Source: Tubulanus polymorphus (taxonomy: Eukaryota > Animalia > Nemertea). Taken from it: 64,000 nt of DNA. The first letter of the stretch is position 1. Each line of letters starts with the position of its first letter. Shown here piece after piece: positions 2,943 to 48,667 of the stretch. The stretch is taken from positions 15,934,110 to 15,998,109 of the forward strand of contig NC_134030.1 in assembly GCF_964204645.1 (NCBI RefSeq), read 5' to 3'. The translations under genes and the position numbers were made by a program. A model generated the notes under the pieces. The model was not told the origin of the DNA and did no database searches. It was given only the letters and a program-made list of their open reading frames with translations.

Positions 2943-3197
<255 letters not shown>

Positions 3198-8559: not shown

Positions 8560-9615
<1,056 letters not shown>

Positions 9616-12156: not shown

Positions 12157-12734
12157 ATGTCAACCAAAGGTGATCTGCTTTTGTGCAAAATGTCATGGCA
12201 ATATCGTGTGCCGCAGAACCCGGAAAAGGCACAAGAGAAAATTTGAAGATGTTCTAACTAACGAAAGTACAAAAGAATTAAAGGCAAGTCCTAATGGCTG
12301 GGACTCAAATAATAATAACGAAATTTAGCAAAACCGTTTACTACCTCATTAATGACCTTGAAATAAATTAACTTACCAACTCGCCCAGAAATATTCCTAT
12401 AATCTGGCTAAATGTTACGTATAGTAATAAGTTATTGCTTTATAAATCATGCTTATTTACATAGATTAGCGTGGAATGTGGTATCATCGAAAATACAGTT
12501 GAAGGTGCAGGAAATCATGCCGAATACGAATATGGTGGAAATAACAATAGAAGATTTGAAGATGATGGAGGGGATGGTGATGGAGATGATAATAGAGTGG
12601 ATGAAGATGGAGCGAATGGTGAAGATGGAGCAATTGGAGATGGAGCAGATGAGGGAGATGGACGGGATGATGATGGTGATGATAATGGTGATGATGAAGG
12701 AGGGGACGATGATGGTGATGATGATGATGGAGAG

Positions 12735-12765
<31 letters not shown>

Positions 12766-15710
12766 AGGAAGATGGTGATGGAGGGGATGATGGTGGTGAT
12801 GACGATGGAGAGGCTGATGTAGGTAACTATGGTGACCACGAGATGTTTCAACAACCTATTTATGAAGGTTCCGATATCAATCTAATACAGTATATCGGAA
12901 TTGTTACATCACTATATGCGAGAGCAACCACCGGCATATCGAAAACAGAAATGACAAGAACACTGAATATGATACACCACATTTTACCCAAACCGAATAT
13001 AACACCACGCTCTGTAAAACAGCTAGAGACGTTAGAAAAATATATATTCGGGAATATGCGTAGCGAAAAAGTGTGTACGAATGGTTGTATGATGTTTTGG
13101 AGGAACAATCGCCATCTTGAACGATGTGACAAATATGGGTCTGCTGAGACTGTATTCACGTGGATGCCACTAATCCCATATCTGAAAGGTAAACCATCTA
13201 AGATATATGATCTCTGCATAATGATTAATTCAGATTTCATCTAGGTATGAATAAAACTGGATTCTGTTTAGAAGTGTTAAAATACATCTCTTTGATCTCT
13301 CTCTAGGACAATATGAACACTTCAACATGGCGCATAGGGTCACTGAATATTTAAGACCAAATGATGGTGAAAGGCAGGTAGCTACTATTCTACATAATGG
13401 GGAGTTGTGATGACGTCATCATCAGACCGATTGCAATAGCTTACTAAAATATATCTACACATTATTTTTATAGAATATTCAACCTGCATCAAACGGAAAC
13501 ATGGCAACGTCTCTTTTCTGATGGACTGTTACAAGGAGATAGGCGATGCCTAGGATTGGCCCTAACGATGGACGGCACTAACGCATTCAGACACAAGAAA
13601 TATACAGTGTGGCCGATCATGATCAACTTTTTAAATCTAAGGTACATGTAGTGAAATTGATGTCTCCGACATACGACATATCATGTTATTAATTGATAGA
13701 AGTCTGAGGAATAATAAGAACTGGTTTTATCAATTTAAGACCACCAGCAGGGAAGGAATATGAAAATACGTTCATATATGGATTAATGCAAATGAACGAA
13801 CGAAAAAAAAAGCGTAAACGGCTCTTTAGCGCCATTAATTACTGAACTCAATGAATTATTGCAAGGCGTACCAACAATAGACGGAAGTCGTAATCTTGAA
13901 CACTTCGAATTAAAGGTAAATAATTCATATCAGAATACCCCAGTCAAAATTATTTGTCCTCGACTTGAAAAACATGTACTCTAAAAATAAATGTAGTGCA
14001 TTCGCCATAAGTATATTTTATCAATCAGGGCAAGTTGATAATGATCAGGGGTGATTACGAGAGTCACTGTTTGACATTAATGCATCAGACGGCTGGCTTT
14101 GATGGGTGCATAAAATGTTGCCATCATGGTATTCACCCACAACCGTTGAATAGAATCGGAGGCAAGAAAAAATTCTACATTTGAATACCAATTGTTATTA
14201 AGATATATTCTTAGAAACATTGCTTCTGATTTTTGTATCAGATACTTACCAGTTAATCATGTGCAGCGAATTGAAGTAGATGCACCATTAATCAGCGATG
14301 ATGGAAATTCAACAACTAGAAATATCGAGGTGCGACATCCGCCTGAAGAAAAAACCCATGGCATTATGTTGAGAAGTGCAAACAGAGTTAATAACGGTAC
14401 ATCAATCAGGAATTACCATCAACTTAAGAAAAATTTATAAAATGCGTTATTATATGTTCATTTGAAATCTTAGGAATAGTTAGGCAGGAACTCGGCTTCA
14501 AAGGGCGGCCGATTCTGTTCGATTTAGATGGAACAAATGTCAATGATATCATTGCATTGGATCCTATGCATACCATTAGTGGTATGATAAAGAAATTTAT
14601 CGAAGCATTCAATGGCAACGAAGTTAGAGATGGTGCAAGAGTAAGACAGTACGAAGAAATGCTATTGCGAAATGAACAATGTTGGGTTTGTAGCACTATT
14701 ACATTTTCTAAAATAAATTTTCATTAACTAATTTCAGCTACTTTTAATAATTAGGGATCATTCATTTGGGCCTATTGCATAAAATTTTACTTTTTCAACC
14801 CCTCCCCTTGTACACAAAATAAGCCATTTTTTCAATATACCTTAAGCATTACAGTACGCATTTACAGTTACCCCTCCCCTAGTACGTAAAATAAATAAAT
14901 TAAAATAAAATAAATAAATTATCCCTTATGATAATAATTTATTTGTTTATATAGTGCTATACTGTAAGATAATCATGGCACTTGAGTCTTAAGCTTATTT
15001 CATTAATTTTTTTTTCTTTTTCAGCTCATCTATGAAAATCTGCCACCAGCTGAATGGAACCTATCAGCCCAAGAATAAGAACTTATCAAAGAGAGATGGG
15101 CATGCATTAAGGCACCATTAGGATGTTCATTCAGAACAGAGGGAAATCCATTCGATCCTAGTAGCAACATGAAATCGTACGACTACATTGAAGTAAATAT
15201 TCAATAAAATAAATAGAATTACTTTTCCAATTAAGAGAAAAACATATTACCGTATCTTCATACTTATCATCTTCATTTTAGGGTGCAATTCATACTCCGT
15301 TAATTTTCTGTTTGCGGGGTATGCTTGGAGTGCATCAGAGAAGGACATTCTTCAACTATTGTAAACTAGTAGGAAGTAAGTGTCAATCATAGGCACAAAA
15401 TGTAACATTTGAAAATATAAAATGACTATCTTTCTGTTCTATTTCAGATATCTACAATTCAAATACAAATGCCGAATGGCAAGAACTGACCACACAGATT
15501 TCTGCAATCTTGGTTGACATAGAAAAATTTTACCCTGCTTCTTTACTCACCCTTCATGTCACCTTCATCACCACATAATTGACTCGATTAGTAGGTTTGG
15601 CACGGCTCATTCTATTCATATGTTTTCCGCCGAGTCATCCATCCATAAACTGAAACAAATGAATACTGCAAAGAAAAATGTTGAAAAGAGTTTGATGAAA
15701 AAACATAAGG
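12157..15710 (+). pseudogene. EnSpm/CACTA transposase, multi-exon, decayed
   Basis: N-terminal CFCAKC..RRTRKRH; Asp/Gly tract; CTNGCMMF..LERC; MDG..F...YTVWPIM; RGDY..GCIKC; LDPMH; MKSYD; HSIHMFSAES; many short GT-AG introns. Confidence 0.8.
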
Positions 15711-16557: not shown

Positions 16558-16732
16558 CGATTACATTTCACTTTCGACGTACGCCGCAATTTTACATTTT
16601 TCATAGGTGGCGCTAGCCAACGGACAGCGTCTTCCATCGTTACCGCTGCGGGTTTTGAGCGGCAATGCAAGAGGTCATCACACTGACATAGCGAAACTAA
16701 CTTAGCACGTTTATATCAAACAATAACACGTC

Positions 16733-17079
16733 AGTAATAGGGATAATAGGCTTTCAGATCAAAGGTCGAAGGGTCGAGCTCGTAAAAAAATGAAAATAAC
16801 AATAATTTACAGTTGAATTAGTCGCGCACACTCCTAATTCAACTGTAAATTATTGTTATTTTCATTTTTTACTCACGCGCCCCTTCAACCTTTAACCTGA
16901 AAGCCTATTATCCCTATTACTCTTAAAATATTCATATATATATAATATATAAACATAATTTACATGAATAACATTTAAATTGACAGATATTCAATATAAA
17001 AGTGTAAGCTCTTATAGAATAGATATGTAGATATATTTACAACATTATTTCAATATTTATATTTGCATGAGTTAGATTT
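16733..17079. repeat. Left TIR; 16733-16921 is a 189-bp hairpin
   Basis: Reverse complement of ~29832-30128, and self-complementary over its first 189 bp. Confidence 0.95.
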
Positions 17080-17523
17080 ATAGATATAGTTAAGATAAAA
17101 AAGTTTATTATATTAAATCCTAAAACAGTAAAAGAAAATTTAGATAATTGTATAAAAATAGCAATTGATACTTATAAAGGATCAAATACATTATTCATTG
17201 TAGATGATTGCGCTAATTTACATGATTCAAAAGTGAGAGAAAGTGAGTTATGTTATCTAGCTTTCTCTGGAAGACATTTCGGGATAACAACATGGGTTTT
17301 AAATAAAAAATATAATTCAATTGTTAAAGACTTTAGGGAGAATATAAGATTTCTAGTTTTATTTTATAACAAAGATAAAAAATCTATGCAACAATCATTG
17401 GAAGAAAATCAAATTATACCTACTGAATTACATGATGAATATATGAATAAATTAAAGAATAATAAAGGTTCAAAATTATTACTGAGATTACAATTTCCAT
17501 ATGAATATAAATTTATAAAATAA
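17071..17523 (+). pseudogene. A32/FtsK-like packaging ATPase, C-terminal half
   Basis: In-frame Walker B LFIVDD (17191-17208) and SGRH motif; no Walker A or start codon, and it abuts the TIR directly. Confidence 0.85.
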
Positions 17524-17877
17524 CTATTTATATACCTATGTATCTAATACGTATTTAATACGTATTAAATACATTAATACTTAAAACCCCCTTTTTTAAA
17601 ATAAATATTATTCATACAATTTTCAACCAATTTATTTTTATTTTTTTTAACTAATATATGAATAAGTTTGAAAATAATAAAGGTTATTTATTATTACTGA
17701 GGTTTCAATATAAATTTTAAAAAGAAATATAATTTAAGGTATTTTCAAATAATACGTATTAGATATGTATTAGATACGTATTAGATACCTTAATACTTAA
17801 AACCCCCATTTTTATTTACTATTATTTTATACAATTTTCAACCTTTATTACTTTTTGAGTTAAATATAATTAATATC

Positions 17878-18746
17878 TTAATCACTTTCACTATCAGACC
17901 CTAACAATCTATTCAAATGCTCTACTGAATCTACATCAATAGTTGTTTTATTTTTATACTTTTTCATCCTTTCTACCGCATCATCAATAGTTTCTTCTTT
18001 ATGTTTCATAGAATCTTTATTATCAATATCTGTAACTATATCACCATGTGGGTGCCATACGGCACCATTTTCATTATTATCTTTATTAGTGTTTGCTCCT
18101 AATATTTCATTTACAATGTTTGATTCTAATTTAATAGCATCGGTTAAATCTAATTCATCTTTATTAGGTGTTGCTAACAATAAATCTTCATATAATTCTT
18201 TACCATTTACTTTTTGATTTGAAACAAACTTTGTAACATATCTAAATGGGTGTTCTATAAATTCTTTTTTACCAACACGTTCTATAACATTAGTAGTATG
18301 TACCTTTGTATTCATATGATTATTCCAATTTGATGGAGCGTTTGAAAATTCACCTTTACAATAATCACAATAATTTCTATTTTCACTAACATTTAATATT
18401 GTTGCATTATTAGATGTAGAAGGTATAACATTATTAGATGTAGAAGGTATAACATTATTAGATGTAGAAGGTATAACATTATTAGATGTAGTAGGTATTA
18501 CATTATTAGATGTAGTAGGTATTACATTATTAGATGTAGAAGGTATTACATTATTATCAATTACATTACTTAAATTATCAACAACACCACTTATTATTAT
18601 CGATTTCTATTAGTTTAGTTTTATAAATTTTGAAAATAGGATCAAATATATAAAGCTATATTACAAGGTATTACATAATATAAACCATCATTATTTTCAT
18701 GTGTATCGATGTATGGAATATGTTTATATACTTTACCTCCTTCCAT
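17878..18746 (-). pseudogene. Viral protein with NNVIP(S/T)TS repeats and a C2H2 zinc finger
   Basis: TAAATG start at 18746, then a frameshift; CDYC...NNH..TKVH is in frame with ORF 17878-18315. Confidence 0.65.
18405..18556. repeat. 24-bp coding tandem repeat, 6 full units plus a partial unit
   Basis: Unit CATTATTAGATGTAG(A/T)AGGTAT(A/T)A. Confidence 0.95.
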
Positions 18747-18778
18747 TTATTATATAAATTTTTATTAAAGTTAAAATT

Positions 18779-20025
18779 TTAATACATAACACTATTCAAT
18801 TGAGAATTTACAATATTTAATTGCGCGTCAGATATAATATAAATGTGCATTTTAAAATTTTTGATTCCTTTATTCTTTGTCATGAATAATTGTATTCCAT
18901 CGTTAGTGTTCTGTAGTTTTTTTCCAGAACCATGTAATGAATTATCCTCTGTTGTTCTAAAATCTAACCATAATGCATATTTATTACCGGTATAATAATC
19001 AATTTGATTAATGTTACAATTTTCAGATGATTTCACTTTTTCATTCATAAAATGTTTTCTAATTTCTGGCCATTGATCAATCATTCTCATTCCTTGACAA
19101 AATATTTTATTTGCTATTCCTTCGATAGTTATTTCTACTTTTGTTATTTCAGGATTATAATAATTATCAACATTTATTGCACCATTAGTATATGTTGCAA
19201 TGGTAAAAATATTAACATACCTTTAATAGATCTTCTTGGGAAGTTAATATTCTCATTAATTATTTCATCATTTGCATTAATAGTTACAGTTTTAAATTTA
19301 TCAATATAATCATATAATAATGAAAATCCTTGATTGTATTGAGTTTGAATTATACTTGAAATATTTTCATCAGTTACTGTATCATATTCTAAACATATAT
19401 TCGATAATTTATAACTCATATCTTTATTAACGCTAGATATTACAATTTCATTAACAGGAGCAAATGTTATTTAGAATATAACATCTTCTTGAATTGCGTA
19501 TTTATATAAAGGCGCATTATTATTTATCAATTCGAAGTCTAATGGAATTTAATATTTGCTTCCATATATAATTTTTATCAATTTATCTATAGCATTAGTT
19601 AATATTGCGCTATTAGCTTCTGATCTTAATTTATTTTGGTTTTCTGATTGGATTCCTTGAAATATCATATTATTTCTATTTTCTTTAGTTAGCCATAAAT
19701 CTTTATAATGCATAAATAAATTATAATCATCTAATGAGAAAACTGTTTCTGGACCAATCTTTATAGTTAATTTTTTAATCAAATATCTTCCAACATTATC
19801 AACAACATAATTATTATTATTACCGATTACTTTTATATCGGCTGATAAATAAATACTATTTGGAACATAAAAAGTATTTTGTGTTAATCGAGGAATTCTA
19901 ACATATAAAGTTTCATCAGGATTAATATTAGAAGGGTTATGAGTAATTATATGATGTGATCTTTCTGCTTTAATAGCATTAGATATTCTATGATTCTTAG
20001 AAGGATTGATATAACTCCCACTCAT
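18779..20025 (-). pseudogene. Major capsid protein (double-jelly-roll type), disrupted
   Basis: Three ORF pieces totalling ~410 codons; THNPSNINP, NVGRYLIKKLTIKI, YKLSNICLEYD and KYALWLDFRT..LHGSG recall invertebrate Polinton-like MCPs (recognised by eye). Confidence 0.75.
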
Positions 20026-20065
20026 TTATTTAACAAAAAAATTAATTATCTATTTTTTATCATGT

Positions 20066-21721
20066 TTACTTGATATTTTTTGATATCATATTTACTAACC
20101 CAAAAATAATAGCACTTACAACTGTAATTAAAAATAAAATAATATGTTCAGCAGCAAAGTTAATAATGTTTCCTGCAGATTTCAATATAAAACCAACAAT
20201 TGATGCAATAACTCCTGGTAAAGCTGCAGCAGATTTTTTAGATAGTTCCCATAAATATTTTGCTAATTTCTTTAAACGATCTTTAACTTTATCTTGTATA
20301 GAATTATTATCTAGGGGTTTATCTGGTTTATTTGGAGTAGGAGTAGATTTCAAAGCATTTGATATAGCTAAACCAATTGATGTAAATAACATAGTTACAG
20401 CTGTTAGAATTGAAAGAATTGTTATTCCTTCTAATTTAAATAATAATTTTATTCTATCTTTCAATGATATTTTAGAATCTGGTTTTATCAACAAATCTTT
20501 AAAAATAACTTTTAATCTATTTATATTATAATCATATGATTTTAACAATAATTTAATTTCTTCTTTTTGTAATTCTAAATTATCTTTTAAATTATTAATT
20601 TCTTTTTCTAAACGTAATTCTTTTTGTCTATATTCCATTTCATCAATTACTTGACGATCAAGATCAGACTTTAATTGTTCTATTTCTTTATTTTTATCAG
20701 TTAATTCTTTTTCTAAATTGTTAATTTTAATATCTCTTATACTTTTTTCATTCGCAATTTTATCAGCCGATTCTTGCATACCTTTAATTTCTCTACGTGT
20801 TAGTTCAGGATATGCTTCTAATTCATTATCAGTTAAATCAAGTAATCCTTTTTCTAGTAAAGATTGTATTCGATTTATTCCAGTACTATTCATCTCTTCT
20901 TCTGAATCTCTTAATCTATCAATTTGTTTTTCTAATACTAATTTTAATTGACTTGAATCATTATCAATTGGTTGAGTGTCTCTTCTCGATGTTTCGGGTG
21001 TTGAAGATCTTAATTTATCTAATCGATCTCTATGATCTTCCATTTCTGGATCAACATCATTAGGATTTAAATTTGGATTTTTAAATGGTGAATATTTGTT
21101 AATATCAAATTTAGGAATTGGTTCTTCTTCATCTAGTATATCGAGTGCATTCCATATAATTCTGAGAAATTCTGTGCCACCTTTTGAATGTTCAATTGTA
21201 GATCTTGCTAACATTTTAGGTTCAAAAATATTTTCTTGACCAATTCTAGATAATTGTATTGATACAGTTTTGTTATTTAATTCAACATTATAATACCATG
21301 AATCATCTTTAAATTCTAAATTATTCATGAAAAATGGGTCATCATTTATAATTTGTTTTACAATTTCTTTATCTATTACATCTTTTGGTAATAATTCGTT
21401 AACAATTGTATATATTACTCTATTTTTCATTAATTTTAATTGAGATTTCATAAGAGGATCAGTTGTATTTACTAATCTTTTCATTAAATCCTTTTTAGAT
21501 GTTGCGGTTCTAATAACTAACCTTTCGGAAGCTGTCATATATTCTTTAAATTCTTTACGCGTTTCATAATCATAATCATCATCTTCACCTAAATTAGAAT
21601 TACGTCCTGGCTTATTACCATCATTAAAACTTGTTTCACTAAAATCAGGTGGTTGTTCATCAGTTATGCCAGGTTCATCTAAAGTATCCATTGGAAAATC
21701 TTCTCCACCTTTTACATCCAT
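20066..21721 (-). CDS. 551-aa coiled-coil protein with C-terminal hydrophobic/TM helices
   Basis: Intact ORF; heptad-rich segment at ~aa 300-400; hydrophobic segments GITILSILTAVTMLFTSIGLAI, AALPGVIASIVGFIL and IILFLITVVSAIIFGLV. Confidence 0.85.
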   Translation of the reverse strand: MDVKGGEDFPMDTLDEPGITDEQPPDFSETSFNDGNKPGRNSNLGEDDDYDYETRKEFKEYMTASERLVIRTATSKKDLMKRLVNTTDPLMKSQLKLMKNRVIYTIVNELLPKDVIDKEIVKQIINDDPFFMNNLEFKDDSWYYNVELNNKTVSIQLSRIGQENIFEPKMLARSTIEHSKGGTEFLRIIWNALDILDEEEPIPKFDINKYSPFKNPNLNPNDVDPEMEDHRDRLDKLRSSTPETSRRDTQPIDNDSSQLKLVLEKQIDRLRDSEEEMNSTGINRIQSLLEKGLLDLTDNELEAYPELTRREIKGMQESADKIANEKSIRDIKINNLEKELTDKNKEIEQLKSDLDRQVIDEMEYRQKELRLEKEINNLKDNLELQKEEIKLLLKSYDYNINRLKVIFKDLLIKPDSKISLKDRIKLLFKLEGITILSILTAVTMLFTSIGLAISNALKSTPTPNKPDKPLDNNSIQDKVKDRLKKLAKYLWELSKKSAAALPGVIASIVGFILKSAGNIINFAAEHIILFLITVVSAIIFGLVNMISKNIK

Positions 21722-21736
21722 TTACATAACAAAAAA

Positions 21737-23081
21737 TTAAAATTTAAAATATAATATTCCTCCGATTACAATTCCTATACAAGTTATAGCTAATTTAGTA
21801 TTTTCATGGGATTTATTATCATCATTTAGTTTAATTATATCATGTTGAATATTATCAGTTTTTATATCTTCTGATGTATTGTAATCTTTTATTTTAGGAT
21901 CATTATTTAATTTAATATTATTAGTTTTAGTTTCTGTTGATTGAATATGTTTTTTATTTTTTTCACCTTCCATTTATATTGGAGCAGTAATAATCTTTTT
22001 ATTTATATCATTTAATCCAAATGAATTATTTATTGTTGCAGTTTTAATTAGATTATTGTAACCAATTATGTTTCCCATCTTTAATACTAAATCATTAGAA
22101 ATAATAAATAGATTAGGGCCTATACAATAATTTAATCTAATATGTGATTTATCTAAATAATTTTGATATCTTACAATGTTTTCCGGAATCGATCTATTTT
22201 TATCATTATGAATTGAATCTTCAAATAAAACTTTGAATTGTTTCTGCGCATCGAATGAAGTGTTATCATTTACAATTATTGGGGATCTTGTTTCAACTTG
22301 AGCACCTAAAATACATATCAAATAAGTTCTAATTGATTGATTTATTCTTTGTATTCCAGCTTTAGTAAAACCGTCACTATTTTCTAAAATGAAATTAACC
22401 CAACCATTATTGTTTTGTTGTTGTATATTATTATAATATTTTGGTAATTCATTCCAATTTAGTAATTCATTCCAATTTAGTGTTCTTATATCTGAATTTG
22501 TCATTATTTTTCCAAATTCTTTAGTATATAATATTCCTAATCCACCCATTGTTCCAATTTTTGCTCTAAAATCTTTATTTGAATTAATATTAAATTTATT
22601 ACATATTTTATTAAAACTTAGAAAAATTAATATTATTATTCAATTCTTTAAAATATTTTGAACCTGGTAAAGGACATTCTAATTCATCTAATATTAATTT
22701 TATTTGAAAATATGTATGAAATCTAAAAGGTGATAACATCACTTGTAAACTTGGTTTGTTTAAATGATCATTCCAACTAATTCCACATCCTGTTGTTGCG
22801 CAATAAACAGCAAAATTTAATTGGTTCTGCCAATACTTCATATTAGATTTTAATAACCATTGTTTTGCCTCATTTAAATTTTTGAAATTAATTGTATACA
22901 CATGAAATATATTTTCCATCTTTACATGAAAATTATTACTTTCAGTAACATAAATATATAAATCAATTAATGAATTTAAAACTTCATTTCTATATGTAAT
23001 ACCTTTATTAAAATCTATTGCTGGAATATTATATTTAATTGATTTATTATATTGGAAAGCTTTTGGAAAACTATCTGCCAT
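21737..23081 (-). pseudogene. Conserved viral protein (YWQNQLNFAVYCATTGCG) with C-terminal TM anchor
   Basis: ORFs 22611-23081, 21974-22549 and 21737-21973; the last two are in frame across a single TAA; homolog at 44497-44795. Confidence 0.75.
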
Positions 23082-23097
23082 TTATATAATTAAAAAA

Positions 23098-23524
23098 TTA
23101 ATAATTTATCAATTCTTTTAATAATTTATCTTGTTCTTCAACTGTTATATGACCATTTAAACTTATTATATAATCTAGTGTATTCTTTAATTTATTAATT
23201 TCTTTTATATTAGTTTTCATTTTTTTCTTTATTACTTCTTATATTTAATTTTGAACTTATACCAGTTAAAACACTTGCACTTAATCCTAACACACCAATT
23301 GATATAGCTAAAGGTGTTAATGGACTGAATATTGCTAAAAATGTTATTACAGAACTAATTGTAACCGAACCACTTATAATCAAATAATATATAATTTTAG
23401 ATTTTAAATATTTTTTCTTTTTAACTTTTAAGTCACTTTCAAATTCTAATATTTGTTTTTCTAAATATATTTTTAATTTAGTTTTATTTATATCATGAGG
23501 AATAATATCAATATTATCATCCAT
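23098..23524 (-). pseudogene. Two-TM plus helical protein, frameshifted
   Basis: ORF 23210-23524 has two hydrophobic helices; the tail LKNTLDYIISLNGHITVEEQDKII lies in another frame; homolog at ~44810-45242. Confidence 0.7.
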
Positions 23525-23544
23525 TTATTTAGCAAAAAAAATTA

Positions 23545-23967
23545 CTAATTAGTAAACTTAAAAGCAACAAATATAACAATAACTGTTCCACCTAAAATCC
23601 AAATTATTTCATATTTCTGTTGTTCTTTACTTGGGGTATAATAATCTGATAATTTAGGTTTGTATAGATGTAATTTTTCTTTATTGGTTACCGCGTTATA
23701 TAAACTCATTGCATCATCAACTGATTGAAAATCTCTATGTGAAATCTTCTGATCATATAATTCCTTGTTAATATAATCCATATAGTTTTGCCTCTTTTCT
23801 CTATATTCTTCTGCTGCTTTATTGTATTTCTCTAATGCTAAGTTATGTCTTTTTTGTTCTGTTAATGATCCATTTTTATCAATATGTTTAAATAAATATC
23901 CACCACCAGTAAATGCTAAAGCGTTAACAATTGCCGATCCTATAATAGTTATAACCGCAGAAGCCTT
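23545..23967 (-). pseudogene. Membrane protein with hydrophobic N- and C-termini; start codon mutated (ATG>AAG)
   Basis: In-frame upstream ASAVITIIGSAIVNALAFTGGGYLF...KRHNLALEK; C-terminal TM; TAAAAG in place of TAAATG. Confidence 0.75.
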
Positions 23968-23991
23968 TTATTTAGAAAAATAATTACGCAT

Positions 23992-24213
23992 TTATATGGG
24001 AGGAATATATGTTTGTTTTTCCATATAATCAATAGTTAAATTAGATAAAGTAACTGCTAATGTTAATTTTAAGATATCATTTATATCAAATCTATCAACA
24101 TTAACACTTCCCATTTTAAATACTTTTTTCAATACCATTGAATAACCAACAGTTCCAACTGATAGTAATGCTCCATTATATAATCCAGTTATTATCCACT
24201 TATTATCACTCAT
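23992..24213 (-). CDS. Small 73-aa putative membrane protein
   Basis: Intact; hydrophobic helices; conserved homolog at 45682-45909. Confidence 0.8.
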   Translation of the reverse strand: MSDNKWIITGLYNGALLSVGTVGYSMVLKKVFKMGSVNVDRFDINDILKLTLAVTLSNLTIDYMEKQTYIPPI

Positions 24214-24554
24214 TTATTTATCAAAAAATTACTTTCATCAAAATATTTAGTTAACTTATTTATGATTAATTCAACATTTATTTCATTACTACTTTTATGA
24301 TTATCATATATTTTGGTTAATATGTTTTTAATATCATCAATAATTCCATCTTCATTTAATTCATAATATTCTAAAGGTGATTTAATTAAATCAATTACTT
24401 TTTCTATATTATAATTTTCTTTATTAATCATTGATGCATTGTTAAATGATTTACTTTTTATATCAGTAATTACATCATTTAGTTTAATTCTCATTTCTTT
24501 ACCATGTATAAAATCAAAACCAAAACATATACTCGGTCCAACAGTTATATTCAT
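24210..24554 (-). CDS. Hypothetical viral protein, 114 aa
   Basis: TAAATG start; MNITVGPSICFGFDF is also present in the decayed homolog ending at 46263. Confidence 0.7.
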   Translation of the reverse strand: MNITVGPSICFGFDFIHGKEMRIKLNDVITDIKSKSFNNASMINKENYNIEKVIDLIKSPLEYYELNEDGIIDDIKNILTKIYDNHKSSNEINVELIINKLTKYFDESNFLINK

Positions 24555-24571
24555 TTATATAGCGAAAAAAA

Positions 24572-25333
24572 TTACTCTCTACATCTTATAACTAATTCAT
24601 AAATTACAGGGAAATTATTTAAATCAATTAAGTATCCATTGTGATTTCTAATTTCTAATCTAAAATTATTAAAACGAGGAATTCATGGTTTGAAATCACA
24701 TTCTGTTAAATTATAATTTATTTGCGTTCCAAATTATTTAACATTCTTCAATGGTAAAATGTTTAATAAACCAGAATTACAAGTTATATCTTTAGTTGCT
24801 TCGAATGTTTTTGTAGGATCGATTAAATTGCAATAAATATAGAAATGTGTGTAAGGTATTAAGTTTGGTGTAACATCATCAATATTTTTAAAAGATCTAT
24901 CTGGAAGAATTCCTAACAGTTTAGCTATAGGTTTTTTTACCATAAATTTATGTTTTTCACTATTAGACAACCTTATCTTTATTCTATCAGAACTATCACT
25001 TTTTAAAAATCTAATACTAAACCCAGAACTACTACCTAATTAATGCCAGGCTTTTCTATTAATTTCTTGTGCTAATGTATCTAAATTATATAACCCCGGT
25101 TTTAAATATATATAGGACCATTCATTTTTACCTTTATCAAAAATTAAAAAGGCTCTATGTTCAATAGTTTTATTCCTTATATTATAAAAAGAATTACATA
25201 AACTTATTTTAACTAATTTTAAATCTACACAATTCTTGAATTCTCTATCTAATTGTACTAGTAAATTATGAGATTTACAATTTGTAAGTTTTCTTGAATC
25301 AACAAATATTCTGTATTCTTTTAATTCTACCAT
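24572..25333 (-). pseudogene. Minor capsid protein (penton, single jelly roll), disrupted
   Basis: IFVDSR, SLCNSFYNI, PGLYN, AKLLG, FYIYCNLID, LLNILP and LEIRNHNGYLIDLNNFPVIYELVI follow the typical penton motif order. Confidence 0.8.
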
Positions 25334-25350
25334 TTATTTTACATATTTTC

Positions 25351-25704
25351 TTATTCGAAATCTATTTCATGGTGCCCTTTTTCATTCTTACCTTTGTATA
25401 CGAAATAGAAATCTCCAGAACATAATTCTCCTAAATCTTCACTTGATAATCTATGAAATCTATCTGGTAAATATGTTCTGAATTTATGTGTATTTCCTTT
25501 TAATCCTTCATATTCTAAGTATATAACTAATTTATCTCCATAGTTATTAGTAACTGTATCAATATTTGTAATTAGATATTTCTTATGAATTGTTAATTTT
25601 ATTAACTTTTTGAATTTATAATCTACAGATTTTACATTTGTTATATCTTTAATTCTATCTAGAAATAATTTGTTGTTCTCACTGTGTGTTTGTTTACTCT
25701 CCAT
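25351..25704 (-). CDS. 117-aa viral protein, possibly OB-fold ssDNA-binding
   Basis: Intact; pattern FKKL..L...KKYLI....T.YGDKLVIYL...TYLP.RF...FVYKG; the fold is an inference. Confidence 0.6.
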   Translation of the reverse strand: MESKQTHSENNKLFLDRIKDITNVKSVDYKFKKLIKLTIHKKYLITNIDTVTNNYGDKLVIYLEYEGLKGNTHKFRTYLPDRFHRLSSEDLGELCSGDFYFVYKGKNEKGHHEIDFE

Positions 25705-25788
25705 TTATAATACATATTTTAACACGTAAGAATTCTTTTCATTATCTCGTTCTCTTTTGTTTCTTCTCTTTTAAATTTTAAGTATGAA

Positions 25789-28700
25789 CTAAGTATAAGC
25801 GACTGTATGAATTCCATCATCTAAAATATATCTTTTATCATCAAATGGGTTTAGACTTATCTTTTCAATTTCTTCAATAAACATTTCATGATCTTCAGAT
25901 CTTAAACATCTCATCTTATGTTTTCTAACTTCTTCATTGAATATACAATTGATGTAATCTTTGAAATGAATATTCTTTTCTACTACACTTTTGGTTATTC
26001 CTTTTAACTTTTTAGCTTCATGTTCTTTAGTTTTATATGAATACATTGTAGATCTAATACCTATGAATTCAATCATTTCTTCACCACCTAATTCATCTTT
26101 GAATTTACCGGGAACTTTTTTATTATCATTGCTAAACAATTCATGATCTTTAGGATAATTACTGAAATCAAAATGATGTTTTAATGTTTTTAAATCATCA
26201 GTTATGTTATTAGTTTTTATCTTTAATATGTAACTGTCGGTATCAAAATATAGTATTTCTATATGTTTTTCTCCAAAAAGTGGTTGTAATACATTATAAT
26301 AGAATTCATACATTAGTAATTTTGATAATTCTAAAACTGAAGCGCCAACATAGATTGGTTTAATAAATTTCATTGATGTTCTTCTCATCTTAACTGCAGC
26401 TAAATTTTCATCAAATATTCTGTAACCAATGAACTTAGGATATGTTTGTAAATGTCTAATTCTTTTACCATTACTAACTAACTCAATATCATTTCTATTT
26501 CTAATATATTCACAAGTCTTACCATAGAATGCATTATTCATTAACTTGAAGAAATCTTTTTCGAAATCAGTTTTAGCTTCAGTTCTCTGTTTGGTGTTAA
26601 AATCTATATATTTTTCTAACCACTTAGATTGACTGAATGAAATATATCTATGTACTTATTTTAGAACCATTCCTTGTTTTAGATAAAACTTTAACATTCT
26701 ATAATGTACTACATAATTAGATTTATCTTCCTGAGTTACCATTAACTTTTCTGTATGAATATGATTTTCAGGTTTAATTCTTTTTTGGTAATTTGATAAT
26801 TCTTCATGAGTTACAGTTTTATGTTCGGGACAGTAAGCTAGATTTCTAGATTTAAATTTAATATGTTCAGGATATTCTAAATCTACAACAAAGAAGTAAC
26901 CAGTATCTGAATCATCTGCAATATCTAGAATTCTTTTCTTCCAATCAAATTTATCATTATTTTCATTCTGTAAAACTTCACTTACTTCAAATACTCCATA
27001 AGGTTGTGGTTCCATCATTGCCCAACCATACAAATTATTTGCATCTATATATAATAACTTATATCCAGGGTTATCATTTACATTGAAATATCTATCGCCT
27101 TATACACCTGAAACTCCTCCTCTTATAGATTTTTCAAATAATAATAATTGATCTATATTTGTTAACAAATCCATTTTTATATCTGTAAATTTTAATCCAC
27201 AATCCCATGTAAAACCTGGGCTAGAATAACAATGACAAGGATCAATATTGAAATATTTTAGGTTTACATCTCTAAACCTTTCGAATATATCGGTTAATAA
27301 TAATACATCTGATTTTAAATATAAATCTACTAATTGCCCATGATTTTCTATTTTGAAATGATTCCAAATATTCAATGTTCTATTATAGACTTCATCTTTC
27401 ATTTTTTAATTCATCATAGAATTGTTCTTTCAATAATTCAGTTATGTTAAAATCATTATGTGATTTATAAAATGAATATGGAATTGCTCCTTTATATCTC
27501 ATTAATTGAAAATCATCATTATTTGGGTAGTGTTGCTTTAATATTTTCAATTCATCATCAACTAATGATTTTGATAAGTTGTCTAATGAACTATTTAAAA
27601 ATCTATATGAATCTATAAATCTTAGGCAACCAAATTGGAATGATATATAATTCTCAGATGTTTTAGCTAACATTCTAAATTTATAAGTTGGTATTTTATC
27701 TTTTGATCTATTTGAATTTAATCTTTCTATTTCGTTATTAATTTCTTCTATTTTATGACATAACTGTTTGATGAATAAATGTGCATCATATCCTGATAGA
27801 TTATGAAATATAACTGGTACAAAGTTAATTTTCTTAGCTTGTAAGTTACAATTCTCATGTGCAGCGCCTCTAAACTTTCCATTCAAATGATCATGGTCTC
27901 TTACTTTTTATCTTTATAATTAAATATCTTTTCACAATAATAACATTTATCTGCAAACGCAAATTCTTCTTTATCTTCTTCTGTCATTATAATTTCTATA
28001 TTTGTATTCAATAATTTACTAAATCTTATTTCATATTCAATTAATAAGTCACAAAAATGATTGATAACATTTTCATTTCTATAATCATAATATTCACTTT
28101 CAATTAGTTCTGGATAATCAGATTTAATATATAACCCGAAAGCAGCAGCTGATTGATGAATCTTTTTAATAGTATTTGTTTTTGGTGGTTCATCTGAAAA
28201 ATCATTTTCATTAGAATTTAATTTCTTTCTTTTATAATATATTTCTTTTCTATCTTGATCAGTTAATTCTTTATTTAATGATTCAAAATCTCCATATATT
28301 ACAAATGGTACTTTATTTTTGTAATCATATTTTTTGAATTCTAATATTTTATCTTTTTCATTTGGTAAAACTAATTTACAATAATCATGATTTTCACATA
28401 ATTGTTTATGATTTAATAATGTACTTTCATTACTGAATTTATGTAAACATTTTCTACATAGATATATTTTATTATGGTGATCACTTTCTGTTCTAAAGAA
28501 TAAATCTTTTTGTTTAATCCACATATAATGATTCTCATAATATAATATATCTATAACATCGTTGGAATCATAATCTTTTGATAGGTATAAAGGTTCTAAT
28601 GTATAATGTTTTATATTGTTACCTTTTGTATTTGGTAATTTGATTAAATCAAATACATTTGTTCTTAAATTATTATCTCTTTCTATTTTTGGGACGTTTT

Positions 28701-29733
28701 TTATTATAACAGGATACTTATCTATCTTATAATTATTTTCAAATGGTTTATAATGAGTTAATCTACAAATATTATAAGTTGCAGGATGTAAACAACTAAT
28801 TATAGCCCATAGAAAACATTTATCATCAAAATTTTGTACATTTATTACAGCATTAGTTTTAAATGGTAGTTTAATATAACTCGATGCTTCAATATCTGGT
28901 TCTTTATAATATGATACATTATTTTCATCTATTGGTTTTGATTTAGTTAACTTATTATATTTTGTGTTATAAACATGTAAAGTCATAAATATTATTTCAT
29001 CAAATATTAAACCAGATCCTTCAAAATATTTCTCTTCTATTTTAGTTTTTACTTCATTATAACATTTATCTAATTTATCATCTATATGTTGTTTATATAT
29101 AATATGTTGTGAATGAGAATTTATATTATATATTGGTTTATCTTCAGATTTTATAAACTTTACTTTAACCGATATACTAATTTTAGGATATTCAACATCA
29201 GTTATTTTTATTATTTCTTTCATATTTTCTAAATGTTTTTTATTTTCTTCTAATGTTTTTCCTTTATGAAATTTAAACTCGATAGCTGCTGGGCCAATAT
29301 CACTTTTAAATGCTTCGGTTATCTCTATATCTTTTTTATTATCTAATGAATTTATATAATTTCTTACATCTTCCATGTATGGTCTTTTATTGTTTAATTT
29401 ATTTTTTATGCTTTTAATTGTCTTCTGTTTCTTATCATTATCTTTATCAAAATAATCTTCACCTAAAATATCATTATTCTTATTTCTAATATGACTTTTA
29501 GATTTTAAATGTTCTTTAAAATATCTTTTATCACTGAATGATTGATTACATGTATCACATTTGTATATTTCTTTTTCATTCTTCAATTCATCTAATTTAG
29601 TTTCTAATATATCATCTTCATATTCTAGTTTCAATTTATTCTCTAAATGTGTTATAGTTTTATTGCATCTTGCTTTTTGGGATTAGTCTATATTGATATT
29701 ACATGTTGGGCAGTAGTACTTATTTGCTTCCAT
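25789..29733 (-). pseudogene. polB: Protein-primed-type family B DNA polymerase with N-terminal zinc fingers, an OTU-like protease and an EndoVII-like insertion; disrupted
   Basis: ExoI YGDFES, ExoII FHNLSGYD, ExoIII YLKSDV, SIRGG, motif A DANNLYG, motif B KLMNNAFYGK, motif C YFDTDS; several stops and frameshifts. Confidence 0.95.
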
Positions 29734-29831
29734 TTTAATACTAAATTTTTTTTTAAAATTGATTTTAGAAGTTCAATGATTTATATCATGTATTATTTCA
29801 ATGACACCTTACTAACACTTTTAATGTTTAA

Positions 29832-30128
29832 AAATCTAACTCATACAAATATGAATATTGAAATAATGTTGTAAATATATACTTTTATATTGAATAATCT
29901 GTCAATTTAAATGTTATTCATTTACATGATTATTTTAAGAGTAATAGGGATAATAGGCTTTCAGGTTAAAGGTTGAAGGGGCGAGTGAGTAAAAAATGAA
30001 AATAACAATAATTTACAGTTGAATTAGGAGTGTGCGCGACTAATTCAACTGTAAATTATTGTTATTTTCATTTTTTTACGAGCTCGACCCTTCGACCTTT
30101 GATCTGAAAGCCTATTATCCCTATTACT
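29832..30128. repeat. Right TIR; 29940-30128 is a 189-bp hairpin
   Basis: Inverted copy of the left TIR, and self-complementary. Confidence 0.95.
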
Positions 30129-33100
30129 CACGTCTTAAAAAAAAAAAAATTACATTTATTTTTTTACGTAACATAATTTTTCCCTCCCGTATTTTAACTT
30201 TAAAAAACGTAAGATTTTCAGAAAAACGTACTCCCGTAAATTGAGGTTCGTTTCCGTAGCAATTATGGAAAATACGTACAGGTTGGCACCTCTGTTAGAA
30301 ATTAGACAAGGCAAAAGGCCGACAGATCCTATAGCCGTCCGCACTCACTTGGGCTGGTGTATTTTAGGTCATACGGTTCAAGGGTCTCGTAATGAACCGA
30401 GGTTCTGTTTTAAAACGACAGCCATTGAGACTCATGGTACAGTTTTGTCGTTGGACAAGCAAGTTGAAAAATTTTGGGAGACCGAAACGTTCGGCGGCGT
30501 TGACCTCTTCGATGATGATAAAAAATCGTGCTCTGTAGAAGATCACCGTGGATTGGAGATCTTTGATAAATCCTGCTGTTCAGTCGACGAACACTACCAG
30601 GTTGGTATGCTTTGGCCGAACATGGATTCATCCATGCCCAATAATCGATTTCAGGCCAAAATCCGTTCCACAAATCTTAAGAAACGATTGAATAAAGACA
30701 CACAATGAATGGCTCTTTATTGCAAAACCATGAATGGCTACATAGAAAAGGGCCATGCAAGGAAAAGGAGTAATGGAGAGTTACAATCCCTTGGTAAAAG
30801 AGCATGGTTTCTTCCCCACCATGGTGTAGTTAACCCCAATAAACGCGACAAGGCCAGGGTAGTGTTTGACGCTGCAGCTCCGTACCTCGGTGTATCTTTA
30901 AATAATCAATTAATGACAGGGCCAGATTTATTAAACAGTCTGTTTGGGGTTTTGCAGCGGTTTCGTTTAGGAGTTGTTGCCATTGCAGCTGATGTGGAAG
31001 GCATGTTCCACCAAGTGAAAGTTCCGGGGGCTGATTCAAAGTCCCTTCTGTTTTTGTGGCAAGAAGATTTAACCGCTGATGGGGAGCCGGAAGTCTATAA
31101 AATGACAGTACATATTTTCGGCGCAGCGGATTCCCCATGTGTTGCTAATTATTGTTTTAAACGCTCAGCCACTTTGCTTTGCTTTTCAGTGAAGATGCCG
31201 TACAGACTATAATACGAAATTTCTATGTGGATGATATGTTAAAATCTGTATCTTTTCCATTACAGGCCATCGAACTAGCAAAGGAAGTAACAGAAATTCT
31301 GGCTCGTGGTGGTTTCCACCTCACTAAATGGATGTCAAACAACCGTGAGGTACCAGCGCAGATTTCGAAAGATGAGAGAGCCCGTCCTGAATTAGACTTA
31401 GAACTCGACGAGATGCCTGTTGAGAGAGCACTCGGCGTGAAATGGGATGTCGAAACTGATTCGTTCCTGTTCAAGCCAGCTGTTAGAGTGGGAATCCCGA
31501 CGAAGCGTCTTGTCGTTAGTACGGTTAGTTCCATTTTCGATCCGTGTGGTTTTGTGTCTCCTTTTTCAGGGCGAAGTGTCTTATACAGCAGATATGGAGA
31601 CAGAACTTCGATTGGGATACTGCATTGTATGGTGATGTTCTCACACGCTGGCTGAAATAGATAAGTGAGCTACATTTTTAGTTGACTTCAGACTAAACCG
31701 GCACCATGTAGATTTGTATGTTGGAAGCACTAAAGTAGAATTCCACATATTTTGTGATGCTTCGGAGGCTGGCTTTGCTGCTGTTGTGTATCTCCGAATG
31801 GAGCGTCCATCAGATGAATTTGTGTGTTCGTTCTTGGCGTTAAAGACGAAGGTGGCTCCTCTTGAAATGTTAACTGTTCCCAAATTGGAGCTGGAGGGAG
31901 CCGTTCTCGTTGTCATGCTGTCTAGTTCGCTTAAACATGAGTTGAAGATATTGGAATTTGAGCGCACTTGCTACTGGACTGATGCGGTTTCTGTCCTGAG
32001 GTATATAAACAACATGTCGACACGCTTGAAAACGTTCGTCGCCAATCGATTAGCGAAAATTCACCGTTCTACCAACGCTCAGCAACGGATGCATGTGCCA
32101 TCAGATCAGAATGCCGCTGATGCTGCTACAAAGGGTTTACCAGCAGCTGGGATCGATTGGACCCCATGTGGCTAAATGGCCCTCAGTTCCTTAGGTTTCA
32201 TGAGTCTGAATGGCCAGATCAGACTTTTGTTCATGGTCCAGTACTATATCCTTCAAATGTGAAAAAATGTTCTCTGTATAAAACAAGTGTTGTCGTTAGT
32301 AAAGCTGAAAATTATGTTGTGATTCTAGCATTCTTGAATTTAGTCGTATTTCGGATTGCACAGATGTCTATCGATTCTCACCATGGTTCAAGCTACGGCG
32401 GCATGTAGCCTGGCTTCTACGTGCGGTGAGAAAATTCTCATCAGTCATTCCTCGTCTGAAAGTCGACCGAGGCCGGAAAGGTCGCCTTCTATTCCTAAAT
32501 ATCTCCAAAAGAAGTCCCTTGCTCCCGTTACGTCCGTTTTATGACGGAGGTGTCCTGAGAGTCGGCGGTCGTTTGACAAACGCAGTGATACCATATGAGG
32601 CCAAGCATCAGGTTATATCGCCCTTTGGTGACCATATTACCCGCCTTATCGTTGCTGATGTACACGAATCTCTTTATCATGCTGGGCCGGAACATGCAAT
32701 TTCTGAGGTCAGGCAAAACTTTTGGCCCGTAAAGGCCCGTAGCTTGGTGCAAAGTGTAATTAGTAAGTGCTCAGTTTGTCGCCTCAGTAGAATCAACCCA
32801 TCGATCCCTATTATGGCTGATTGTCCCGTGTTGCTGGTTATACCCGTCCTTTTACTTATACAGGTATCGATTATTTTGGTCCCATGTTTGTTAAGCTTGG
32901 TAGAAGCATAGTTAAAAGATGGTGCCGTTTGTTTACGTGCCTTCTAACGAGGGCGATTCACTTGGAAGTTGCGGATAACCTGGAAACCAATGCTTTCATT
33001 TTAGTCTTGCGTAATTTCATAGGCCGAAGAGGTCCGCCATCCGAAATTTACAGCGACAACGGAACTAACTTCGTGGGCGCTGATCGCGAACTTAGCGAAG

Positions 33101-33748
33101 CATTGGAACTGCTTAATCAAGCGCAAGTCCATAATCACCTGCTCAAACGTGGCATTTTTCTCCTCTGTCAGCCCCTCATTTCGGCGGAGCTTGGGAACGG
33201 TTAGTGAAATCTTCTAAACGGGCACTGAAACATATTCTTAAAGGGCAGCTGGTTATTGATTCTGTATTACGAACTGCGTTAATAGAAACGGAGTCCGTCA
33301 TCAATAGTAGACCATTAACATACAACAGTACCGATCCGAGCGACTGCACAGCCATTACTCCAAATCATTTTTTGCACGTTGGTCCAACAACGATTAGTGC
33401 ACCTGATATATTCGAACCTAAAGATATTTGCAGTCGCAAAAGGTGGCGGCAAAGTCAGGTCATCGCCGACCATATTTGGCGTCGGTGGACACGCAAGTAT
33501 CTACCGGGTTTAGCTTTACGTAAGCAGTGGCAGTGAGACGGGCTTGGTGTCGCGGTCATTGACCCTGACGGACGTATAAGGGTGGTTAAGGTAAAAACCC
33601 AAAGTGGTTCTGTGCTTACTCGTCCAGTCAGTAAAGTGGCTGTCCTGGAGGAGTCTGTGTGTTAGATTTGGCTTGTTCTGTATACGAGATGTTGTGTTGA
33701 TAATTGTGTATTGTGTTGAAGCTCTATGTGACGTCAAAGGGGGTGGCA

Positions 33749-36346: not shown

Positions 36347-39300
36347 TGTCAGGGACAGAGCCCTCGCGATAACATAGAAGTAACTGCGAAACGGTTTTAA
36401 CAGGAATACTTTATTGAACTTCCGTTAACTGAAAATGCAAATTATATATCAGACAAACAACAAACAGATGACGTCTAATTATTCAAATATTAATCTATGT
36501 ATTACATTACTTACAACTTCGTTTGCGAACTATGCATCGAGATCCGTCCGTCAAGTAGGCTGGTGGCGTATTGCGACGAGAACAAGGTATGCGAACGAGT
36601 TTATAGCAGGAAATTCTTAGCGTAAAAAGGGGATTACAGCACAGTACACTATGACAACAATAGAGCTACGAGCTAAACCCTTAGTTGACAGATTTGATCA
36701 AACGGTTTGTGACATGGCGCCCCCTAGAAGCAATCTTGCGTCGATTCTTCGAGTAAACAAACCTTTGACGCTGGCCTCAAATAGGAGCCACGCGCACATT
36801 CAACCCGAACAGCTCTTACGTTTCCGTCTTTCCCTGGATAAATCTCGCCAATTCTACCAAGGCTCCATTTCCCACGGGGAAGGGACGAGTCTACCAAGAT
36901 CACCAAATCACCAGGTTTTAAATTTACGGCGGTATTCCCTTTCCATTTGCACCTACACGACAATTGAGGCAGGTACTCTCGCAACCAACGATGCCACATG
37001 TGATCAGCGAGAATTTGGCTTTGACGCCAACGTTTACGACTATTCAATTCTCGCTCGCTAAAAACATCAGGCGAGTTGACCTGATTAGCGCCCCCTAGTA
37101 GAAAATGGTTGGGAGTAAGGGGCGTGAAATCCGTTGGGTCCGAGCTATTGTAAGTTAGCGGACGACTATTAATTATTGCTTCAGATTCAGCTAATACCGT
37201 TCTCAAAACGGACTCATTGACCAGTTGTTCTTTCAAGATTGCTTTCAAGGCGCGTTTAGTGCTTTTAACGAGCCGCTCCCATGCTCCTCCGAAATGAGGG
37301 GCATATGGAGGCAAAAAATGCCAGCGTACATTTTTCTGTAAAAGGAAGTCATGTATCTGACTGTTGTTCCATCTTTTCAAACCAGCGGCTAATTCCCTAT
37401 CGGCCCCCACAAAGTTATCGCTATAGATATCGGTAGGTACACCGCGCCTACAAATGAACGTTCGAAGAGTCATAATAAAATCATCAGTTTCTAATGAATC
37501 TACTAGTTCTAGGTGCACAGCTCTAGTGACTAAACAAGTGAACAGACAGCCCCACCTTTTCAGCCTATGCCTACCCTGTTTGACCTGGAGAGGACCAAAG
37601 AAATCAACTCCCACGAATTGAAACGGACGAGAATACGCTGCTAACCTTGACGCAGGTAGGTCAGCCATAATAGGTACATGAGGCCTTACTTTGCGACGAT
37701 GACAATCAGGGCAACGACTTATTATTCCTTTAGCCATCAAACGAACTTTAATCGGCCAATACTGCTGCCGACATTCCGCAATTATATGTTCGGAACCACC
37801 GTGGCCCAAAATCACATGAAAGTGAGAAATGATCAACTCACTTACGTGGTGACCGTATGGTAAAACTACTTGATGTTTCGCAACATAAGGTACTGCTGCG
37901 TTTTTTATTCTACCTCCAACTCTTATTAATGTACCCTCAAAAAACGGATTTAAAGAGCGGAGACAACTGGCGCGGGGCATGGATCCGCCACGCTTCAATT
38001 CGTCAAACTCCTCAGCAAATGCATCACGTTGTGCCGTGACAAGGAGTTGTCTTTCAGCGGATCTGAGTTCCTCGCACGATAGATATTTACCAGTACATGT
38101 TCTTTTGTTAACTTCCAGGAACTGATTTTTCAACCGAGGAACAAGCGACAGAAACCGACGAACGGCTCTCAATATCCATGCAGTATGTCGCTTGAGCTCA
38201 TACCACGAGGAAAACCGTTCGATATCGACGAGACCAGTAACTAATCTGTCAGGCATACCGGACTTATCAATAACCTGAGTGTAGACGGAGAACGACTTTA
38301 CGTTTTCGTCATCATAATCGACGTTACCCGACAACGAACTCTGATCGGGCCACAAATCCTCGGATTCTTTCAAAAACTCAGGACCCACAATCCATGGATG
38401 AGAATCAACAAGATCCAAGGCATGTAAACCACGAGTGCAGTAGTCCGCAACGTTCAAGCGGGAAGGTACATAGCGCCACTGACTCACTGCAGTTGACTCG
38501 TGTATCTTCGACAACCTATTCGCTACAAACGTTTTGTAACGTATATTTCCGTTATTTATATAGCGAAGTACAGTCAATGAATCACACCAGAATACGATAT
38601 TCGAAAATGATAGGGATAGTTCATCGCAGATCCTTGAGCTGTACTGCTAGAACTGCGCCTTCCAACTCCAATTTAGGAATTGTCAAAAAAGGTTTAATTG
38701 ATGCTAGACGTGTTTTAGCGGCTAAGAAAGAATTAACCCACGACCCAGCTGACATCATGAATCTTAAATAAGCGACACAGCCAAACCCTAATTCTGAAGC
38801 ATCACAGAAAATGTGCAGCTCAAATTCAGTTACGTTAGCAGATAACTCTAAGTGATGGCGAGGTATTCTAAGAGCCCTAAGCTGACACAATTCATCCTGC
38901 CAACCCTCCCAAACGTCTAAATGCTTGCCGTCCACGTCATCGTCCCACGCAACCTTTGATCTCCATATATCTTGCATAAGGCACTTCGCCCTAAAGGTAA
39001 AGGGAGCCAAAAACCCACAGGGGTCAAAAACTGAACTAACAGCACTCAATACACCTCTTTTCGAAGGTTTCACATCCTTTTTCACTGGCGTGAAAACAAA
39101 TTCGTCACTTTGGACGTTCCATTTGAGTCCTAAAGCCCTTTCCAATGGAAGCTCATCAAGATCGAGATCTAAATTAGGACGTGCAAGCTCTTGTTTAGGA
39201 AAGTAAGATAACAGTTCACGACTATTGCTGACAAATTTCGTCAAATGAAATCCGCCTTTAGCTAAGATTTGGACCACATCCCTAGCTAGGTTAATACTAG

Positions 39301-48619: not shown

Positions 48620-48667
48620 GGTAATGTAGAATTTTCACTAATTATGTAGGTAAAAAAAAGACATACA

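Follow-up and report, generated by a model that had tools for sequence, protein, structure and literature searches.

TAAATG gene starts and terminal hairpins in a decayed Polinton-like provirus of Tubulanus polymorphus

Maverick/Polinton elements (adintoviruses, with Beta-type protein-primed family B polymerase, pPolB) are found in animals, mostly as decayed copies, and have AG..CT ends, 6-bp duplications of the target site (TSDs), terminal inverted repeats (TIRs), a vOTU-type pPolB, an A32 ATPase and a double-jelly-roll capsid, according to PMC8097293 and PMC8502044. Polinton-like viruses (PLVs) of 12–13 kb are tied to poxviruses (AHEV_PLV1/2, CBEV_PLV1 and Ca_PLV1), and one of them sits in an animal genome without a detectable integrase (PMC11296320). 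In protists, mavirus, endogenous mavirus-like elements (EMALEs) and Gezel-14T (PgVV) combine integration into the host with an AT-rich genome and a helper-type promoter across genes, and mavirus carries both pPolB and an rve integrase. No Maverick virion has been seen (10.64898/2026.06.19.733378). How animal Polintons are expressed, and whether any of them are virophages, are questions on which a promoter-like motif restricted to one clade would bear. Such a motif was found in a 64,000-nt stretch of the genome of the nemertean Tubulanus polymorphus (assembly GCF_964204645.1, contig NC_134030.1, positions 15,934,110 to 15,998,109), hereafter the window. Positions 16733–30128 of the window are a decayed, multi-copy integrated PLV (provirus).

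The element shares with Maverick/Polinton all the features listed above, and an rve integrase is present in a member of its clade. In contrast to them, its capsid profile barely matched the presumed Maverick-type major capsid protein (MCP) used for comparison, no protease was detected, and several membrane-protein genes are present. TAAATG starts and hairpin-forming TIRs are not mentioned in the available text of PMC8097293 and PMC8502044. The entomopoxvirus-associated PLVs, compared by description only, differ in that they were found with their helper in occlusion bodies, encode an adenovirus-type protease and in some cases use a primase-helicase and a tyrosine recombinase (PMC11296320). Mavirus, EMALEs and Gezel-14T have protist hosts, mimivirus-type helpers and other motifs, and reactivation and protection have been shown there. 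At its ends the present element behaves as a Polinton, and in its transcription it would behave as a virophage; its placement in the capsid groups of Mavericks, among virophages or among the PLVs associated with entomopoxviruses is not established.

TAAATG at gene starts

The sequence TAAATG was present at 9 of 10 gene starts of the element but at only 23 of 333 other ATGs of the same strand (Fisher p 1.6e-9). An apparent start at 21973 was dropped, changing the count from 10 of 11, because it is a stop codon followed by ATG inside a larger gene, and a homologue aligns straight across it. The pPolB gene starts with TAAAATG in both window copies. None of the nine TAAATG starts is an in-frame stop-start junction. 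At six window starts a T-run lies 4–10 nt upstream of TAAATG, a spacing close to the late-promoter-like geometry of the vaccinia concatemer resolution sequence (PMC8956199).

In related loci, starts were counted for open reading frames (ORFs) of at least 100 aa in which the first ATG is preceded by at most 25 open codons. TAAATG was found at 15 of 17 starts in six close relatives (L004, L005, L006, L007, L010 and L067) and at 7 of 271 starts in 73 distant pPolB loci (close versus distant, p 5e-18). The clade loci L008, L009 and L011 and the neighbouring locus L029 were left out, having 0, 0, 1 and 0 callable starts; the single start of L011, in an internal pPolB fragment, is not TAAATG. At the exceptions within the clade, TAAA(A)T is nevertheless present no more than 2 nt from the ATG. 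Throughout the clade the motif is accompanied by an A/T tract upstream. The motif is kept in L010 at 44% GC, where its background is 2.2%, and is missing from the AT-rich distant loci L041 (23% GC, 0 of 3 starts) and L084 (19% GC, 0 of 10). The earlier note on this DNA had reported the TAAATG starts and had made its reading depend on their exceeding what composition predicts; they proved to be far above chance and confined to a clade. In the pPolB tree, for which the L067 piece was too short, the motif mapped to a clade of 16 rows (SH-aLRT 97) that includes the window element and five close relatives. L014 and L031, sister loci that share this gene set, mostly use the Kozak-like AAAATG.

Position −3 is T in 24 of 27 clade starts, counted after the removal of 21973, versus A in 91 of 162 distant starts; this is contrary to the Kozak rule, and a Kozak reading of TAAATG was rejected. 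At most starts AG is absent from the 15 nt upstream, and the proposal of a trans-splice acceptor was discarded since AG was present there at only 7 of 32 listed TAAATG starts. TAAATG is also found at the genes that lie first after the TIR and at those of divergent pairs (L003, L004, L006, L007 and L010). Because the T at −3 opposes the Kozak rule, and first and divergent genes carry the motif, TAAATG behaves, as far as its sequence context tells, as a pox-type initiator restricted to one clade. In the literature searched, most subscription papers being outside the reach of that search, no animal Polintons were described as forming a TAAATG clade. The clade-level feature is real.

TAAATG was also found at all seven starts, including divergent pairs, of L003 (positions 1–9034), a distant viral contig with 36% pPolB identity and 38% GC. 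Its integrase is fused to a chromodomain, and it sits on a long branch in the pPolB tree. The motif in L003 reflects either an independent origin or kinship; it arose at least once in the clade and possibly again in L003.

Proposed transcription by a helper virus and other explanations

In vaccinia, intermediate and late genes have TAAAT as their initiator, and slippage of the polymerase there provides a 5′ poly(A) leader (PMC6211774; cf. PMC4542343); the vaccinia resolution site, itself a late promoter, has the form T7-N8-TAAAT (PMC8956199). Sputnik and mavirus use the late promoter of their helper (10.1101/2022.07.28.501842), and PLVs occur in entomopoxvirus occlusion bodies (PMC11296320), although the words "promoter" and "motif" are absent from the main text of that report, which contains no promoter analysis. 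Genes for RNA polymerase or transcription factors were not recognised in the window copy or in its partial relatives. Since no polymerase gene was recognised, and the pPolB and capsid genes share the motif, transcription in trans by a cytoplasmic helper would be the simplest reading. Mavirus-like virophages likewise have one helper-type promoter pattern before most genes, including the polymerase, the likeness being one of pattern only. Judging from these sequence features, we put the probability that the family is virophage-like and depends for its transcription on the pox-type RNA polymerase of a cytoplasmic helper at about 0.5. That the helper itself is specifically pox-like is a more tentative suggestion. 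Doubtful as a whole is the full picture of a new germline-integrated Polinton-like clade that would be a virophage-type parasite of an undiscovered pox-like invertebrate virus, in which the post-replicative initiator of poxviruses would drive every gene and the genome ends would serve as a 3′ fold-back origin of single orientation.

Under this scheme, transcription would start inside TAAAT, and slippage of the polymerase would add a 5′ poly(A) leader, so that the mRNA would no longer contain the T at −3, a base that scanning ribosomes disfavour. The pPolB, capsid and membrane genes would form one post-replicative class, as in mavirus and Sputnik, because all of them carry the motif. Replication would be protein-primed at the AG ends, and the 3′ end of the displaced strand would fold back to give a local duplex origin, which fits the G.T rather than A.C mismatches on the 3′-terminal strand and the absence of flip/flop described below. 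The integrase would then place copies into the germline, where they decay.

Several observations weigh against helper transcription and the fold-back origin. A scan of viral contigs for the promoter pattern, covering 19 of 64 parts and 120 loci with TAAATG at 31 of 640 starts, gave no helper candidate. The motif pattern makes transcription by a pox-type polymerase, as proposed in the earlier note, a serious hypothesis, but the helper itself was not found. Yeast cytoplasmic plasmids use TAAAN too (PMC6211774), and a six-letter motif is unable to name a virus family. All relatives are partial (at most 7 kb in the clade), and the element could have a transcription gene of its own. The pPolB tree was built by a quick method without bootstrap. 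A poly(A) signal, AATAAA or ATTAAA, overlaps 17 of 31 TAAATG starts in an element that is 77% AT. As for the ends, both strands of L004 fold equally well, and at the L007 end, where the outer arm is present, a full hairpin is missing (−13.8 kcal/mol), an absence that may be real or due to assembly collapse.

The overlap with poly(A) signals is what would be expected if the motif were no promoter but a by-product of compaction, arising where upstream stop codons and AATAAA signals fuse with the next ATG in an AT-rich genome. Genes of the element are indeed co-oriented and packed, at a GC content of about 23%. However, 14 of the 31 TAAATG starts have no poly(A) signal, the nine window starts contain no in-frame stop-start junction, and the AT-rich loci L041 and L084 lack the motif. 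Because first genes after the TIR and divergent pairs carry it, stop-start packing and poly(A) signals would explain at most part of the pattern, and compaction as the whole cause is improbable.

Coral polintoviruses are reported to be expressed (10.64898/2026.06.19.733378), and integration happens in the nucleus. An autonomous nuclear PLV could be envisaged, in which host RNA polymerase II (Pol II), perhaps with an element-encoded factor, reads TAAAT and an A/T tract as a short-leader initiator without any helper. Several conserved ORFs have no function assigned, L003 combines TAAATG with the integrase chromodomain, and the TATA-like word TATAAA precedes several starts. On the other hand, by the rules of Pol II start-site selection a TATA box that adjoins the ATG would place the mRNA start downstream of that ATG, and by those of ribosome scanning a start inside TAAAT would leave a leader of only 0–3 nt. 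Also against nuclear transcription, sister loci with the same gene set use the Kozak-like AAAATG, and the largest of the unassigned conserved genes, whose product ends in a membrane-type tail, gave no fold match among transcription factors. We consider this explanation possible rather than probable. We give very little weight to the idea that a compact pox-related RNA polymerase is encoded within the family or by a partner element, with no giant-virus helper, in the manner of the pPolB-bearing yeast linear plasmids. Yeast virus-like elements do use a TAAAN initiator, poly(A) slippage and their own polymerase (PMC6211774), and the clade relatives were seen only in part, but neither the 13.4-kb copy nor any clade locus yielded a polymerase subunit, and in size and gene set the element resembles a PLV that bears a capsid.

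Transcription by a cytoplasmic helper, if true, would mean that endogenous virophages, with the biology known from protists, also exist in the germlines of animals. A clade-restricted helper-type initiator would be a sequence marker sorting likely helper-dependent from likely autonomous elements. From it one would expect mRNAs with untemplated 5′ A leaders at TAAAT, a specific feature, and it points to a pox-like virus not yet found. Protection of the host by reactivated copies is quite unlikely, and the inducible antiviral defence suggested in the earlier note found no support, the three family copies in the window being broken, deleted or cut by its edge.

Ends and copies of the element

The element begins with AG at 16733 and ends with CT at 30128, and CACGTC is duplicated on both sides (16727–16732 and 30129–30134) as a 6-bp TSD. 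Its GC content is 23.5%, versus 36% and 42% in the flanks. The terminal hairpins of 189 nt (left, 16733–16921, plus strand; right, 29940–30128, minus strand) differ by one mismatch, and the left one consists of a 25-bp perfect outer stem, conserved mismatches and an inner stem of about 40 bp. The predicted fold of the left end has −70.7 kcal/mol (z −18.0), and none of 200 shuffles was as good. Weaker TIR homology, at 83%, extends inward to about 17082 and 29829, or about 350 bp per end; the inner parts of the TIRs are 16922–17082 on the left, the diverged part, and 29829–29939 on the right. The ends, TSD, hairpins and AT-richness described in the earlier note were all recovered, as was its view of the copy as decayed; pPolB and the MCP gene are broken and the ATPase gene is 5′-truncated.

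Two other family copies lie in the window, both on the minus strand. The first, cut by the window edge (1–2665), contains the right end and the 5′ part of pPolB and is 95% identical, and the second (44454–47494) is a 3-kb copy of a sister subfamily with an internal deletion, 78–83% identity, its own hairpin sequence and the target CACGTG/CATGTG. In a DNA run with the same species label, median read depth was 606 over 24 bins of the element versus 28–42 in the flanks, which suggests, from read depth alone, about 14–22 copies at ≥85% identity. Most mapped family reads were 90–99% alike. The flanks contain Bel/Pao retrotransposons (Pfam matches Peptidase_A17, DUF5641 and DUF1759), a group essentially confined to animals, and the host is therefore an animal.

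Full hairpins of 151–257 nt were found at five ends, and in each the inner arm tracks its own outer arm although the subfamily sequences differ. Transitions between the arms place G.T on the 3′-terminal strand 18 times and A.C twice over four ends, which are related and not independent, and one A.C is an alignment shift. In the window ends the 3′-terminal strand folds better by 7–11 kcal/mol. One polarity, without flip/flop, was observed in five full and three partial ends, a small sample of eight. A resolution site facing the hairpin was not found, the combination of a T-run and TAAATG occurring only at six gene starts under a pattern that required the final G. The hairpins are therefore not poxvirus telomeres, and terminal inversion of the poxvirus or adeno-associated virus type was rejected on the ends examined. 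Decay of CpG as the source of the mismatches is unlikely, since they are one-sided and recur across subfamilies. The hairpin likely serves the 3′ fold-back of the displaced strand, recreating a duplex origin for protein priming, with self-priming as the alternative.

Terminal palindromes in the TIRs of PLVs and virophages have already been reported in Halocafeteria, where they lie next to the TSD and were proposed to form hairpins (10.64898/2026.07.28.741278). The palindromes pictured there are 52 nt long and occur preferentially in elements without pPolB, in contrast to the 151–257 nt, the pPolB and the conserved strand-biased mismatches of the present family. Poxvirus telomeres are likewise AT-rich, incompletely paired hairpins; unlike them, the window ends have no flip/flop and no T-run plus TAAAT facing the hairpin, and they are open AG..CT ends joined to host DNA.

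Additional observations concern the ends. In the deleted copy at 44454–47494 the right hairpin is complete, whereas the left outer arm is reduced to about 43 nt, which suggests that integration needs only the outer arm. Target sites at 16727/30129, 44448/47495 and 2666 are CACGTC, CACGTG/CATGTG and CACATT, hinting, from three insertions only, at a preference for near-palindromic hexamers starting with CAC. Many family reads skip 126–131 bp just inside the right TIR (29773–29905), and subterminal length thus differs between family copies. Inward-facing TAAATG words with very short ORFs lie 15–50 nt inside the right hairpins of all three copies (29924, 2449, 47295 and 47310) and may be due to chance.

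Genes of the element and neighbouring sequences

The earlier note had listed genes for pPolB, MCP, penton and ATPase, of which pPolB, MCP and ATPase were supported by homology. The pPolB gene (25789–29733, minus strand) is of the Beta type with a vOTU-like motif, starts with TAAAATG and is interrupted by three stops and two frameshifts. Its product is 88% identical to P0001, an intact metagenomic protein of 1363 aa, in which exonuclease, polymerase and vOTU-like motifs were located with patterns that we take to be characteristic of them. The vOTU background of such polymerases is given in PMC11161782. Another clade-related pPolB, P0016 (1693 aa), has intein and homing-endonuclease Pfam matches inside the polymerase. 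The A32-type packaging ATPase (17071–17523, plus strand) lacks its 5′ part and was identified by a Pox_A32 match (E 5.5e-06) and 37% identity to residues 65–209 of the L031 ATPase. A 200-bp direct duplication (76%) follows it at 17438–17849.

The MCP gene (18779–20025, minus strand, TAAATG start) encodes a double jelly roll and is interrupted near 19550 by stops and near 19200 by a frameshift; its product is about 75% identical, in three pieces, to intact proteins of 415 aa. A structure model of the alignment of these capsid proteins (pLDDT 84) was a double jelly roll whose best fold matches are capsids of nucleocytoplasmic large DNA viruses. The MCPs of mavirus and Sputnik ranked 41–45 in this search, at 10–11% identity, below those of iridovirus and PBCV-1. 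The MCP profile matched the only comparison protein, the L059 MCP, which is presumably of the Maverick type, with a probability of 5.6. The MCP family comprised 2748 representatives at E values up to 0.001 and 276 at 1e-30. Capsid searches gave no relative in viral contigs, none in phage records and two short fragments in GTDB, while an atlas search with the MCP returned only unnamed viral clusters, one fragment having no match. The capsid relatives P0146 and P0241–P0248, labelled hypothetical proteins of Bartonella sp., come from contigs shorter than 2 kb and are probably eukaryotic or viral DNA carried into bacterial assemblies.

A probable penton gene (24734–25333, minus strand, TAAATG start, broken near 25041) was assigned by a motif that we take to be that of pentons, and no Pfam or PHROG match was obtained. 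The rve integrase was not detected in the window copy by tblastn with the L005 and L003 integrases; the clade member L005 has one (E 6.5e-09). No adenain-type cysteine protease was found among the ORFs by Pfam or by tblastn, the relatives seen being all partial.

The remaining genes are on the minus strand and, except where stated, have TAAATG starts; several ORFs contain hydrophobic segments. A lineage-restricted gene of about 416–450 aa (21737–23081), with a C-terminal hydrophobic tail, is broken near 22614 and 21975. Its family of 41 proteins of about 416 aa, which includes L010:3581–4831, was modelled with confidence (pLDDT 80), but searches of Pfam, of PDB sequences and of folds gave no match, apart from alignment of the terminal helix; a new fold is not thereby shown. 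Other genes encode a 551-aa coiled-coil protein with hydrophobic segments in an open frame (20066–21721), a 104-aa membrane protein (23210–23524), a 140-aa membrane protein conserved in relatives, whose start codon is lost in the window copy (23545–23967), a conserved small protein of 73 aa (23992–24213), a 114-aa ORF (24210–24554) and a conserved 117-aa ORF (25351–25704), which adjoins pPolB in relatives and is 62–63% identical to ORFs of L004 and L006. The ORF following the ATPase (17878–18746) is broken and has a zinc-finger-like motif and a 24-bp tandem array at 18405–18556.

The remainder of the window consists mostly of transposons (30172–33533, 36727–42427, 47714–52525 and 61558–64000). 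They include Bel/Pao elements, confirmed by Pfam for 36727–42427, and a gag-bearing long terminal repeat (LTR) element; one of the window transposons is presumably a non-LTR element. At 12465–13241 an open frame of 259 codons contains a long Asp/Gly-rich repeat.

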